Shown: piece by piece, positions 1-5,743 of the stretch
Numbering within the stretch: position 1 is the first letter of the stretch
Layout: each line of letters begins with the position of its first letter
IMG/VR virus record: IMGVR_UViG_2703718819_000022
Location: 1 to 6,145 of that record
Reading direction: 5' to 3' (one strand)
Source: a virus
Lineage: Duplodnaviria > Heunggongvirae > Uroviricota > Caudoviricetes
DNA: 6,145 bases
Position numbers and translations under genes: made by a program
The notes under the pieces: generated by a model
What the model saw: only the letters and a program-made list of their open reading frames with translations
Database searches by the model: none
What the model was told of the DNA's origin: nothing

Positions 1-405
1 ATGGATCAGGTCGTTGTTTTTCAAAAGATGTTTGAGCAAGTGAGAAAAGAGCAAAACTTCTCCTGGTTTTATTCAGAATTAAAACATCACCGTATTGCAC
101 ATTACATTTATTATCTGGCTACGGATAACATCAGAATTATTACTCACGATGACACGGTTTTGTTATTAAGAGGAACCAGGAACCTGTTAAAAGTTAGTAC
201 GACCAAGAACCCTGCTAAAATAAAAGAGGCCGCATTGCTTCATATTTGCGGAAAATCTACATTTCGGGAATACTGTTCAACACTAGCAGGCGCGGGCGTT
301 TTCCGGTGGGTTACTGATGTTAATCATAACAAACGCAGTTACTACGCCATTGATAATACGCTTTTATATATTGAAGATGTAGAAAATAATAAACCATTAA
401 TCTAG
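1..405 (+). CDS. hypothetical protein (134 aa), AT-rich; possible accessory/cargo gene; may be 5-prime truncated at the window edge
   Basis: ORF starts with ATG at base 1 and ends at TAG 403-405. Composition is visibly AT-rich compared with the rest of the window. No family recognised from the translation. Confidence 0.45.
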   Translation: MDQVVVFQKMFEQVRKEQNFSWFYSELKHHRIAHYIYYLATDNIRIITHDDTVLLLRGTRNLLKVSTTKNPAKIKEAALLHICGKSTFREYCSTLAGAGVFRWVTDVNHNKRSYYAIDNTLLYIEDVENNKPLI

Positions 406-639
406 CTAAAGTTGGATGCTTAAGAAATGCTGTTATATATAACTAATTTCACTTAACGCATTGATTTAATTAAATAATTTGCACTACAAAAAATGCCATA
501 AATCGCAAAATGACTACACCAGTGACTACACCGTTCGGTGCACTGTATGAAACAACGTGGAACAAATAGACACAAGAAATATACAGGCGGGTCATCTTTC
601 CAGGGGGAAGCGCGCTAATTCATGAGGGGCGTTAATGTC

Positions 640-1550: not shown

Positions 1551-1583
1551 TGTGCCCCCATCGTTCTGATAGTCTGGTGTCGT

Positions 1584-1654
1584 CGGGTCCTTCCTGGAAT
1601 TATGGCCCGTTACGGGGCGGCGACCTCGCGCGTTTTCACTATTTATGAAAATTT
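1584..1654 (+). other. lambda-type cos, copy 1: cosQ-like GTTACG followed by cosN GGGCGGCGACCT (1615-1626), then CGCGCGTTTTCACTATTTATGAAAATTTT
   Basis: Near-identity to the phage lambda left-end sequence as I recall it (GGGCGGCGACCTCGCGGGTTTTCGCTATTTATGAAAATTTTCCGG), including the 12-nt cohesive-end sequence. Forms an inverted repeat with 2110-2181. Confidence 0.8.
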
Positions 1655-1663
1655 TCCGGGATC

Positions 1664-1782
1664 CATGTCCGGTTTCTCTGCAAGTTAACCATATGAAAAA
1701 TATAAAAACATGCTTTCCATGAACCGGACATGCGCAAAAAACAGACACTAAAACCGGACATCGTACCAGTTAACCGGAAGTG
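1664..1782 (+). promoter_or_regulatory. cosB-like region: one CATGTCCGGTT site (1664-1674), an AT-rich spacer (about 1690-1710), then inverted sites AACCGGACATG (1722-1732), AACCGGACATC (1752-1762) and AACCGGAAGTG (1772-1782)
   Basis: Repeats read directly. Their orientation pattern and distances from cosN (about +50, +108, +138) match the R3 / I1 / R2 / R1 layout of lambda cosB as I recall it. No terminase gene follows. Confidence 0.6.
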
Positions 1783-1955
1783 TGCAAAAATCACACGCAT
1801 TGCTGCGCGTGATTAACAATTTATCGGCTTTACTGTTCTGTATAGGCTGGGTGGCGTCATGCCGTAGCCGTTCTCCGTGCCAGCATGGAATAATCCGTAG
1901 TTACAGAGCGGTAAAGTTAAAAATCACTTTCTGTTACGCCATCAAATACGCGATA

Positions 1956-2100
1956 CAACAACCATGTGTTTTTACAAAACCATTTGATATCATTGAATTT
2001 TTTCACATTAATGACATCAAAATACATCGTAAGGTTGTTGTATTTATTTTATTTTTACCTTACTTATCAATTAGATATACCAAACAATTAAACAACAACC
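1956..2100 (-). repeat. second putative terminase-binding repeat set next to cos copy 2: ACAACAACC 1956-1964, GGTTGTTGT 2033-2041, ACAACAACC 2092-2100, with an AT-rich tract between
   Basis: Short repeats read directly. Relative to cosN copy 2 they sit at about +45, +110 and +190 on the minus strand with one site inverted. The motif is short, so chance occurrence is possible. Confidence 0.3.
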
Positions 2101-2109
2101 ACCCCCTCA

Positions 2110-2181
2110 AAAAATCTCATAAATAGCGAAAAACCGCGAGGTCGCCGCCCCGTAACGGGTCCATATGCCGGAAAGGACCCG
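2110..2181 (-). other. lambda-type cos, copy 2 (inverted): cosN GGGCGGCGACCT is the reverse complement of 2139-2150, preceded on the minus strand by GTTACG
   Basis: Minus-strand reading CGGGTCCTTTCCGGCATATGGACCCGTTACGGGGCGGCGACCTCGCGGTTTTTCGCTATTTATGAGATTTTTT aligns at roughly 85 percent (by eye) with copy 1 at 1584-1654, and is even closer to the recalled lambda sequence in the CGCGG-TTTTCGCTATTTATGA part. Confidence 0.75.
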
Positions 2182-2182
2182 T

Positions 2183-2206
2183 AAAAAAAAGCCGGATTTC
2201 TCCGGC
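2183..2206 (-). terminator. intrinsic terminator ending the capsid operon
   Basis: Hairpin GCCGGA-TTTC-TCCGGC (2191-2206) followed on the minus strand by T8 (plus-strand A-run 2183-2190), starting 7 nt after the stop codon at 2213-2215. Confidence 0.8.
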
Positions 2207-2212
2207 CTTGTC

Positions 2213-2638: not shown

Positions 2639-2974
2639 TTATCGCGCCAGCGGCTGAACGGATACGCCAGAACCCGCAAAGGCGGCGCATTTTTTCGCGT
2701 CAGTGTCGGCGCTCTCAGGCCAGTTTACGGCGGCGATATTAAATATCCCCGTCTTGTAACACTGTGCTGATTTCTGCTTTGACGTGTCCACGGGGTACGA
2801 AGTCAGATAAACAGCCTTGCCAGATTCCTGACCATCCCACGGCTTAAACTCGCCATTGTCCGCCAGCATCAGCGGGGTAAATTCCTGAATAACGCCAGCA
2901 TCAGCGGCAAAATGTACCAGCGTCGTGGATACCTGCTGACTGCCTGCAAATAACTCAATGTATGGAGTGTCCAT
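2639..2974 (-). CDS. head decoration protein, phage lambda gpD-like (111 aa)
   Basis: By-eye alignment with recalled lambda gpD: TPLMLADNGEFKPWDG vs TPLMLDTSSRKLVAWDG, and CYKTGIFNIAAVNWPESADTDAKKCAAFAGSGVSV vs [42 protein letters not shown] Shine-Dalgarno 6 nt upstream of the ATG at 2974. Confidence 0.85.
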   Translation of the reverse strand: MDTPYIELFAGSQQVSTTLVHFAADAGVIQEFTPLMLADNGEFKPWDGQESGKAVYLTSYPVDTSKQKSAQCYKTGIFNIAAVNWPESADTDAKKCAAFAGSGVSVQPLAR

Positions 2975-2986
2975 AGAATCCCCCCG

Positions 2987-4042
2987 TTAACCAATTTTGA
3001 CGGTAACAAATTTGCGAATATCTGCCGGAACCGGCTGCGGTGCGCTGTGCGTCTGCACGTACTCAATCGCCGGATCGCCGTCCTCAATCCAGTTTTTCGG
3101 GTAAAACATGTTTTGCGTTGCGCCCGTTCTTACCGCTTCCTGTTCCATAATCGCACCATAGGCCACCAGCCCTTTATTGTTGGTGTTGCCCAGGACCAGC
3201 AAATCAGGCTCAAGGAAATATTTTTCTGTGCCGTCGCTGTCAGTGTATTTGCCGGAATAGACGATAAGGGCCAGATCACCAAGATAGCCCTTAAAGCTCA
3301 CCACTTCGCCCAGGTTTTTACATGCCAGCTCTGCGGCGGATTCTGAACCACGGGAAAGATCGTACAGCTCACGGAATTTTTTAAAGCTGCGTAACATGCG
3401 CCATACATCAACGCCCATAATCATGACGTTGGCGGGGCAACCTGCCTGATCTGCGTATAGCTCAATGTCATAGATTGGATCGTGTATGTCTTTATCCTGC
3501 TCGGACCATTTTTTACCGTCGGCCTGCTCTATGATGTTTTTTTCCGGTATCTTCCAGTCGATTTCATAGCGCTCTATGCCTTCGCCCTCAATGATGTTTT
3601 TTCCGGTCGTTACCGCATTTACCGCCAGCCATTCCACGCGCGCTTTAATGGCGTTTATCTGGCGGCGCATGTTGCCAGTAATCAGGCGCATACGGCGGTA
3701 GGTAGGGTCGTTAAGCTGTGCCGGATCTTCTCCAGCCATGCGCATTATTGTTTTTAATGGATCGATTTCGTGTTTTGGCTTCATGTAGCCAGGGCGAATA
3801 ATGCTGGTTTCGTACCCTTTATCGCGCTGAACCAGGCTACCAACCATAGGCGAACAAAACGCCGACATAGTGACTTCTTCAATATCCAGGTTATCTAACA
3901 TGATGTCCTGTGTGTTGAATGTCGCCACGTTCGGGAAAAACAGCGCGGTAAACAGCGGACTGAATTTAAATTCCGCAATATCCTCGCGATTCAGGTACGC
4001 AAAAAGCTGGTTAGTGTTAAGTGCTATTGCTTTTACTGTCAT
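2987..4042 (-). CDS. major capsid protein, phage lambda gpE-like (351 aa)
   Basis: Full-length by-eye alignment with recalled lambda gpE (341 aa): EFKFSPLF / KFKFDPLF; PGYMKPKHEIDP / PGYVKPKHEVNP; EDPAQLNDPTYRRMRLI / EDPQNLADPAYRRRRII; LRSFKKFRELYDLSRGSESAAELACKNLGEVVSFKGYLGDLALIVYSGKY / FRSFKAVKEKLDTRRGSNSELETAVKDLGKAVSYKGMYGDVAIVVYSGQY; YPKNWIEDGDPAIEY..SAP / YPKNWVTTGDPAREF..SAP. GGGGGTGA Shine-Dalgarno; start overlaps the upstream stop as TAATG. Confidence 0.92.
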   Translation of the reverse strand: MTVKAIALNTNQLFAYLNREDIAEFKFSPLFTALFFPNVATFNTQDIMLDNLDIEEVTMSAFCSPMVGSLVQRDKGYETSIIRPGYMKPKHEIDPLKTIMRMAGEDPAQLNDPTYRRMRLITGNMRRQINAIKARVEWLAVNAVTTGKNIIEGEGIERYEIDWKIPEKNIIEQADGKKWSEQDKDIHDPIYDIELYADQAGCPANVMIMGVDVWRMLRSFKKFRELYDLSRGSESAAELACKNLGEVVSFKGYLGDLALIVYSGKYTDSDGTEKYFLEPDLLVLGNTNNKGLVAYGAIMEQEAVRTGATQNMFYPKNWIEDGDPAIEYVQTHSAPQPVPADIRKFVTVKIG

Positions 4043-5457: not shown

Positions 5458-5505
5458 TTTTATTTTTACCCTCGTGTTTAAAAAGTTTTAGGTTGTGGTG
5501 CACCT

Positions 5506-5729
5506 CCTCTACCTCTCTACCTAATCATCTTTCATGTCAGTAATGGCGCGGCTTTCAGATGGGTAGAGGGCTTTCGTGGCCCTCTACCCATCCTCTACCC
5601 GCCCCTCACAAACGATCTTAATCATGGTAGAAGAGGTAGAGAGGTTTTATTAGCCTTCTACCTAGCCCTCTACCCACTTATCATGTTGAATAATATGCGT
5701 TTATTTCATTCAGGTAGATGGGGTAGAGG
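5506..5729. repeat. iteron array, putative replication origin: at least 11 copies of CCTCTACC / GGTAGAGG in alternating paired orientation, separated by AT-rich spacers
   Basis: Copies read directly at 5506-5513, 5514-5521, 5562-5569 (inv), 5581-5588, 5592-5599, 5626-5633 (inv, degenerate), 5635-5644 (inv), 5654-5662 (degenerate), 5667-5674, 5713-5720 (inv, degenerate), 5722-5729 (inv). Includes a perfect 14-bp-arm inverted repeat GATGGGTAGAGGGC-N7-GCCCTCTACCCATC at 5558-5592. Lies directly after the C-terminus of the gene at 5744..6145. Confidence 0.7.
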
Positions 5730-5743
5730 GCTTTTACAAAAAA

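Follow-up and report, generated by a model that had tools for sequence, protein, structure and literature searches.

Among the described relatives of the locus analysed here is the island EcCICFT073, which carries two cos sites that both work when cloned and whose joint deletion abolishes transfer (PMC6092414, PMC6739421). One of them, cos1, is stimulated when RppA, a protein of the island, is bound to the helper TerS (PMC6092414, PMC6739421); it lies directly upstream of rppA, on the capsid side, and cos2 is the site on the AACCGGACATG side (PMC6739421, supplementary Figure S1A). According to its describers, no phage cosB is identifiable in EcCICFT073 (PMC6092414, PMC6739421), and the island was stated to be without capsid morphogenesis genes (Fillol-Salom 2018 ISME J, PMC6092414). 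Deletion of the non-Rpp cos raised transfer by lambda (PMC6092414), so that carrying a second cos can be disadvantageous when the helper is non-cognate. The presence of two cos sites in the EcCICFT073 family is thus already published (PMC6092414, PMC6739421); the question why some islands have two different ones was left open by PMC6739421. A comparable strategy is known from the cos-type staphylococcal islands SaPIbov5 and SaPIbov4, which are described as carrying the cos of the helper and no TerS of their own, two putative cos sites being reported for SaPIbov4 (as cited in PMC6092414). Their sequences and hosts, however, are unrelated to those of the island considered here, and no description of two different inverted cosB specificities in them was found in the literature cited here.

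On the phage side, the lambda-like cosB follows the order R3-I1-R2-R1, in which R2 is oriented opposite to R3 and R1 (PMC9026076), and the cosQ of lambda is TTTACGGGTCCTTCC (PMC6092414). In phage N15, R3 was set at bp 48-59 (GAGGTTGTTGTT) by block mutations (Feiss et al. 2015, PLoS One, PMC4669245); scrambling of bp 48-53 caused an approximately 7-fold drop in phage yield and scrambling of bp 54-59 an approximately 100-fold drop (PMC4669245). The lambda-like prophages of the Monarch group have the N15 R sequence in a complex cosB with three R sites and an IHF site (PMC4669245).

Results

The analysed stretch of 6,145 bp, referred to below as the window, covers the right-hand part of a phage-inducible chromosomal island (PICI) of the EcCICFT073 family. 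Its identity is 98% to the STEC2018-607 island and 92% to the prototype in CFT073, and the capsid-like genes, ssb, perC and pri show 91-98% identity to the islands of CFT073 and STEC2018-607. The family backbone is present, with pri, ori iterons, ssb, perC, the capsid-like genes and two inverted cos sites; the integrase of this island lies beyond the window limits. Window positions 1-431 correspond with 100% identity to the chromosomal gene ycgX, which occurs in nearly all E. coli genomes. The possibility that the island sits inside a helper prophage (the left end encodes DUF1398) was ruled out, because this stretch is chromosomal ycgX. The junction between island and ycgX (window 1-459) was found in none of the 5426 complete genomes searched, and the integration site is thus absent from this collection. 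The elements around the cos pair are as follows.

1269-1550: ORF of 93 aa flanking the cos pair
1584-1655: left-hand copy of the 72-nt inverted repeat that surrounds cosN, and one of the breakpoints of the inversion described below
1615-1626, plus strand: cosN of copy 1, GGGCGGCGACCT, equivalent of the published cos2
2110-2181: right-hand copy of the 72-nt inverted repeat that surrounds cosN
2139-2150, minus strand: cosN of copy 2, GGGCGGCGACCT exactly, at the position of the published EcCICFT073 cos1 on the capsid-gene side (both assignments after supplementary Figure S1A of PMC6739421)
2170-2185, minus strand: cosQ-like sequence of copy 2, TTTACGGGTCCTTTCC, compared with the lambda cosQ
2188-2209, minus strand: intrinsic terminator-like hairpin closing the capsid-gene operon and abutting cosQ of copy 2
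2213-2626: ORF of 137 aa flanking the cos pair
2639-4042, minus strand: lambda gpE-family major capsid protein (PF03864) and gpD-family decoration protein (PF02924), by Pfam
further genes, minus strand: end of a D5/primase-type replication protein, SSB and a PerC-like regulator (ORF list and Pfam)

Repeats were also seen elsewhere in the window. Direct repeats GTTYCCGAAAATATCAACGGGTTA at 1092-1115, 1205-1228 and 1248-1271 (also at 454-466) hold perfect matches to the IHF consensus and lie within about 800 bp at the island end for which the islands of CFT073 and STEC2018-607 have no annotation; they may be arm elements of an attachment site. Dense direct and inverted repeats GGTAGAGG/CCTCTACC at 5480-5740, directly downstream of the replication gene, look like origin iterons.

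An earlier note on this DNA had placed three related sites at roughly +45, +110 and +190 of cos copy 2, with an A/T-rich tract between the first two, and had proposed that they form a second cosB unrelated in sequence to the AACCGGACATG boxes of copy 1. The layout was confirmed: the 9-mer GGTTGTTGT occurs exactly three times in the window, all within 146 bp and at bp 51-59, 110-118 and 188-196 of copy 2, and the tract between the two cos-proximal boxes (2000-2099) has a GC content of 23%, that of the region overall being 23-27%. Direct reading and alignment both confirmed that these boxes are unrelated to those of copy 1. Shuffled sequences lead one to expect 0.08 occurrences, and not one of the 200 shuffles had three; with one mismatch allowed, six matches were found in the window against 1.45 expected. 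The features beside copy 2, with the positions given for phage 21 in its annotated record, are the following.

2092-2100, minus strand: R3-type box GGTTGTTGT, cos bp 51-59 (phage 21: R3 at bp 50-65), within the extended invariant run GGTTGTTGTTT
2065-2077, plus strand: IHF-like site, equivalent of I1, TATCAATTAGATA, cos bp 74-86, between R3 and R2 (phage 21: I1 at bp 72-86)
2033-2041, plus strand: R2-type box GGTTGTTGT, cos bp 110-118, inverted relative to R3 and R1, within the invariant run ACAACAACCT (phage 21: R2 at bp 107-122)
1977-1989, minus strand: second conserved IHF-like sequence TATCAAATGGTTT, between R2 and R1, with one mismatch to the consensus
1955-1963, minus strand: R1-type box GGTTGTTGT, exact match, cos bp 188-196, oriented like R3 (phage 21: R1 at bp 150-165)

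The strands of the boxes (-, +, -) read forward, inverted, forward in cos orientation, as in the three-R rule with inverted R2. The order of the elements and the orientation pattern are those of lambda and phage 21, the positions of R3, I1 and R2 agree within 1-3 bp, and the spacer from cosN to R3 is nearly identical to that of lambda. Unlike in lambda and phage 21, the sequence of the R boxes is unrelated and R1 lies about 40 bp further out. The putative I1 site TATCAATTAGATA fits eight of the nine specified positions of WATCAANNNNTTR, and its TTGATAA core is invariant across loci. Matches to the IHF consensus are not above chance over the window (11 against 7.1 expected), and the IHF-like site at bp 74-86 is called on position and conservation only. 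The sequence TATCAAATGGTTT is partly invariant across the aligned loci, and an IHF role for it is putative. At the sequence level, the rest of copy 2 is likewise intact, with an exact cosN, the cosQ-like TTTACGGGTCCTTTCC, undisturbed cosN-R3 spacing and the correct order of elements; judged in this way, cosB (1955-2100), cosN (2139-2150) and cosQ (2170-2185) make up a full lambda-type cos on the minus strand that reads leftward.

A sensitive search found the copy-2 segment in 299 of the 5426 complete E. coli genomes, and in about 240 of these the match spans window 1935/1950-2110 with 81-99% identity. Lambdoid prophages share window 1935-2110 with 92-99% identity as their spacer between cosN and terS, and in all seven prophage loci fetched (L006-L011, L016) the segment lies between cosN and the start of a Nu1-family terS (Pfam PF07471), which is followed by terL. 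Altogether, terS with a cosB of the GGTTGTTGT kind is present in about 244 of the 5426 genomes, and in 57 genomes the segment belongs to a PICI. The conservation of the 9-mers in homologous loci had been set beforehand as a check, with a lack of conservation counting against a cosB, and the 9-mers are conserved: all E. coli homologues fetched have the three of them in the same order and orientation, the sole change being a G-to-A substitution in the R1 box of L009, so that R1 is conserved in nine of ten aligned loci. In the alignment of these ten loci (73-95% pairwise identity to the window; columns bp 40-199 compared), 26 of the 27 box columns and 57 of the 133 remaining columns are invariant, an unambiguous pattern (Fisher p=7e-8, a descriptive value, since the aligned loci are kin to one another). 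Ranked by length, the invariant runs begin with the three boxes, R3 first, and continue with the TTGATAA core of the IHF-like site in fourth place. The window cosB is 98.8% identical to the copy in prophage H62, and the part from R1 to cosN is 95-99% identical to prophage copies. Among phage records, matches stop near window 2104, except in one Enterobacter N15-like phage that matches window 2087-2180, R3 included; no E. coli phage record of the collection has the full three-box cosB, and N15 and the Enterobacter N15-like phage have R3 alone. Therefore, the support for the copy-2 cosB comes from prophages.

The comparison with the cosB and R sites of lambdoid phages, which had been suggested along with the proposal, matched the layout to that of phage 21, as described above, and the motif to R3 of N15. 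The left end of N15 reads GAGGTTGTTGTTTAAT at bp 48-63, and window GTGGTTGTTGTT at bp 49-60 is identical to N15 R3 in 11 of 12 positions with an offset of 1 bp, the critical GTTGTT (54-59) being present. The 9-mer GGTTGTTGT is thus contained in GAGGTTGTTGTT, and its distance from cosN agrees to within 1 bp. The TerS proteins of the prophage homologues point in the same direction. Their first approximately 50 residues (LLNKSDMASSIGISVQAFDKWGVPPVERRGREVFYDV) are nearly invariant, their C-terminal halves diverge, and overall identity is about 70% (six E. coli loci); the N-terminal domain is 80% identical to that of N15 gp1, and the stretch GISVQAFDKWGV is identical. The phages in which the homologous cosN-terS spacer occurs thus have a TerS with a recognition helix of the N15 type. 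The three-R-plus-IHF layout is also that of Monarch, with the IHF site being putative here. As the segment fits the description of Monarch, it can be regarded as a member of an already known cosB class, and this identity rests on the description in PMC4669245 and not on Monarch sequence. Unlike in Monarch and N15, no terS follows downstream in the window; R1 is succeeded by an rppA remnant, beyond which lies a second cosB in the opposite direction. A further difference of N15 is that it has only R3 and a remote rR2 inside gene 1.

The cosB that serves copy 1 belongs to another type, as the following features show.

1664-1782, plus strand: PhiR12-type cosB serving copy 1 (identity to PhiR12 phages)
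1664-1674: box CATGTCCGGTT, inverted, bp 50-60
1722-1732: box AACCGGACATG
1752-1761: box AACCGGACAT
1772-1782: degenerate fourth box

Window 1583-1761 is 93.9% identical to the stretch directly upstream of Nu1 in PhiR12 phages. The PhiR12 Nu1 (L013 1728-2237) and the TerS of L006 (1984-2463) are almost identical over their C-terminal approximately 100 residues, whereas their N-terminal domains are unrelated, as are their boxes (AACCGGACATG versus GGTTGTTGT). The difference reads as a clean swap of the DNA-binding domain together with its cosB. Since DNA-binding domain and box type were exchanged together, the two cos copies would carry recognition sets of two TerS classes, and the earlier proposal that their recognition sets differ thus holds on comparative grounds, with a PhiR12-type set at copy 1 and an N15/Monarch-type set at copy 2. 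A literature search on PhiR12 phages and on inverted or two cos sites in PICIs returned nothing relevant beyond the papers cited here.

Compared with EcCICFT073, the window has the same family background, two inverted cos sites and an identical cosN, and its copy 1 corresponds to cos2. The prototype differs at the capsid-side cos, where its rppA and Rpp-specific cosB are replaced in the window by the N15/Monarch-type cosB, and the statement in the EcCICFT073 papers that no phage cosB is identifiable does not extend to the window, in which both cosBs have phage counterparts. The rppA gene encodes 144 aa (L001 7084-7518; identified through R21/T22 and supplementary Figure S1), and blastn against the rppA of CFT073 and of L004 traced its remains in the window. 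The ORF list of the window contains no Rpp-like ORF, and of rppA only the following 3' remnants are left.

1830-1914: rppA remnants placed head-to-head, the last 20 nt on the minus strand (1849-1830) and the last 70 nt on the plus strand (1845-1914), with a 5-nt overlap

A colinear MAFFT alignment with CFT073 had given the impression that the GGTTGTTGT segment is simply replaced by rppA; this reading is misleading, as blastn shows inverted pieces. The arrangement suggests that the cassette consists of two cos2-type halves fused at the 3' ends of rppA and originating from two different islands, one looking like a CFT073-like half with the PhiR12-type cosB and the other like an L004-like half with the N15/Monarch-type cosB. 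L004-like islands carry rppA together with the GGTTGTTGT cosB at the other cos. The GGTTGTTGT cosB is present in at least three diverged PICI lineages, namely window-like, L004-like (about 82%) and L005-like (about 72%), which account for the 57 PICI-bearing genomes and in all of which the boxes and the IHF-like core are intact.

The rpp-less cassette with an identical junction was found in 11 of the 5426 genomes. The window and four of the junction genomes occupy four chromosomal sites, namely ycgX (window), tRNA-Pro/yejO (two genomes), rcnR/thiM and cspD/clpS, and differ in their integrase and replication modules, which suggests that the rpp-less form was still mobile after the loss of rppA. 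Moreover, the inter-cos segment of about 600 bp is inverted with respect to both flanks in eight of the 11 genomes (L018, L019, L020, L021, L022, L024, L025, L027) relative to the window and the three others (L002, L023, L026). What moves in this inversion are the cosB sides, the cosQ sides remaining attached to the backbone; the breakpoints map to the interior of the inverted cos arms, with the point of exchange in an identical 25-nt core, CCCGTTACGGGGCGGCGACCTCGCG.

The co-residence of the rpp-less variant with candidate helpers was estimated indirectly, from chimeric queries with subtraction of places-per-record counts and ignoring strain kinship, and the figures are suggestive at best. A PhiR12-type terS was present in seven of 11 variant genomes against a background of about 21% (nominal p ~0.003, kinship ignored). 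The Monarch-type terS was present in two of 11 against about 4.5%, which is not significant (binomial p ~0.09, kinship ignored).

Discussion

The homology to prophage cosBs, the geometry of the elements and the agreement of the motif with N15 R3 strongly support the view that copy 2 has a cosB of its own that differs from that of copy 1. We consider it likely that 1955-2100 is a complete, complex N15/Monarch-type cosB used with helpers of that type, that copy 1 is of the PhiR12 type, and that the island is consequently a dual mimic. Since rppA and the Rpp-specific cosB have been lost, the island probably depends on imitating two helper cosB types directly instead of redirecting TerS, and there are sound grounds to expect that one island could be packaged by two types of helper. 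We infer that TerS would bind, cosN would be cut and packaging would start at copy 2 along the following lines. A helper TerS with a winged-helix domain of the N15/Monarch type (LLNKSDMASSIGISVQAFDKWGV...) would bind the GGTTGTTGT boxes, and an IHF-induced bend in the A/T-rich spacer would turn both R3 and R2 towards a single TerS dimer. The bound TerS would position TerL, cosN at 2139-2150 would be nicked, and the replicating island would be packaged leftwards; a PhiR12-type helper would likewise start from 1615 and package rightwards. The two cos sites should act independently, because packaging from either one would reach the other as cosB, cosN, cosQ, an order unsuited to termination.

Several other explanations of the copy-2 segment have to be weighed against this mimicry of two helpers. 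The segment may be a true phage cosB by descent, acquired through cos recombination with a resident Monarch-type prophage or another PICI, and yet be an inert relic without a role in transfer, which would then depend on the other cos or on different routes. Its near-identity to prophage copies, above all to that of H62, indicates recent exchange, the head-to-head rppA remnants can be seen as scars of an illegitimate rearrangement, and co-residence with Monarch-type terS is not significantly enriched; the conservation of the boxes among PICIs could, moreover, reflect recent capture from prophages and not selection within the island. We nevertheless regard the relic as unlikely, because three or more diverged PICI lineages in 57 genomes keep the boxes and the IHF-like core, the rpp-less cassette has spread over several chromosomal sites and backbones, and neither cosQ, cosN nor the critical cosN-R3 spacing is disturbed. 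The sequence of R3 argues against another reading, namely that the segment is a PICI cosB of the Rpp-dependent kind (R3-PICI), recognised by an Rpp-TerS heterodimer that another island provides in trans: at bp 48-65, the place of the R3-PICI sequence of Murialdo and Feiss (2022), the window has GGTGGTTGTTGTTTAATT and CFT073 cos1 has GTGACACCACCACCACTT. It is true that the segment sits at the cos that holds the Rpp-specific cosB in EcCICFT073 and that several genomes have more than one related island. However, the window has R2, an I1-like site and R1, which Rpp-type cosBs are described as lacking (PMC9026076), and the matching proteins are full-length phage TerS and not Rpp. An Rpp-dependent cosB is therefore very improbable.

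An A/T-rich intergenic region with repeated boxes might also be an operator or promoter region, or encode a small RNA, for the neighbouring island genes instead of being a packaging signal. Nevertheless, a scan of 1500-2300 detected no sigma-70-like promoter (none against 1.8 expected), an Rfam scan of the region gave no match, and in prophages the segment always lies between cosN and terS, which makes such a role extremely improbable. That the 9-mers arose by chance in an A/T-rich spacer can practically be dismissed. Short repeats are common in DNA with 23-27% GC, but the shuffles never produced three copies, the order and orientation of the 9-mers are kept in homologues at 72-95% identity with the single L009 change, and they are identical to the mutationally defined N15 site; the conservation data refute this explanation.

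A broader reading of the family is conceivable, which we put forward tentatively and do not favour outright: the two inverted cos sites may bound an exchangeable and invertible packaging-specificity cassette, the cosBs of which are copied from helpers and swapped at cos, so that rpp-less islands are the dual mimics. The proposed states of the cassette would be the PhiR12 type, the N15/Monarch type, a CATGTCG type and the Rpp type with rpp or a full terS, and the swaps would proceed via cos recombination with resident prophages and other islands. Inversion could come about by homologous recombination or by terminase cutting of both cosN sites, in which case a fragment with two identical cohesive ends would be freed. 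Should the cassette reading be true, rpp-less islands would be pure dual cosB mimics hedging between helper types.

The cosB class defined by GGTTGTTGT is known from phages, where it represents the N15/Monarch specificity (PMC4669245); in the literature cited here, no description was found of island cosBs assigned to phage classes, of an rpp-less double mimic or of an invertible cassette. With both cosBs of the window now tied to concrete phage classes, N15/Monarch-type and PhiR12-type, and with a natural variant from which the whole Rpp hijacking system is gone, the open question of the two cos sites turns into a direct experiment, namely whether each cos serves its own helper class. The assignment also predicts the mobilising prophages: among complete E. 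coli genomes, about 21% carry a PhiR12-type terS and about 4.5% a Monarch-type one. It is relevant for forecasting how island-borne traits spread and for the design of cos-based delivery particles whose helper range can be chosen.

Further observations concern the exchange of parts at cos. In L005, L007 and L009 the GGTTGTTGT cosB is paired with a different cosN (GGGGGTCGGTGGAC in L007); since this occurs in both PICI and prophages, cosB and cosN assort independently. In L015 2380-3400 (JNEC-KY179), a full-length terS of 180 aa occupies the rpp slot with boxes of the GGTTGGTGT/ACACCAACC type, and boxes of the CATGTCG type accompany the other cos, which adds a third and a fourth cosB state to the family. 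Finally, the R3 region of CFT073 cos1 (L001 7560-7575; bp 48-65) contains ACCACCACCAC, a triplet repeat resembling the reverse complement of GGTGGTTGTTGT, which may hint that the Rpp specificity was derived from an N15/Monarch-like ancestor.
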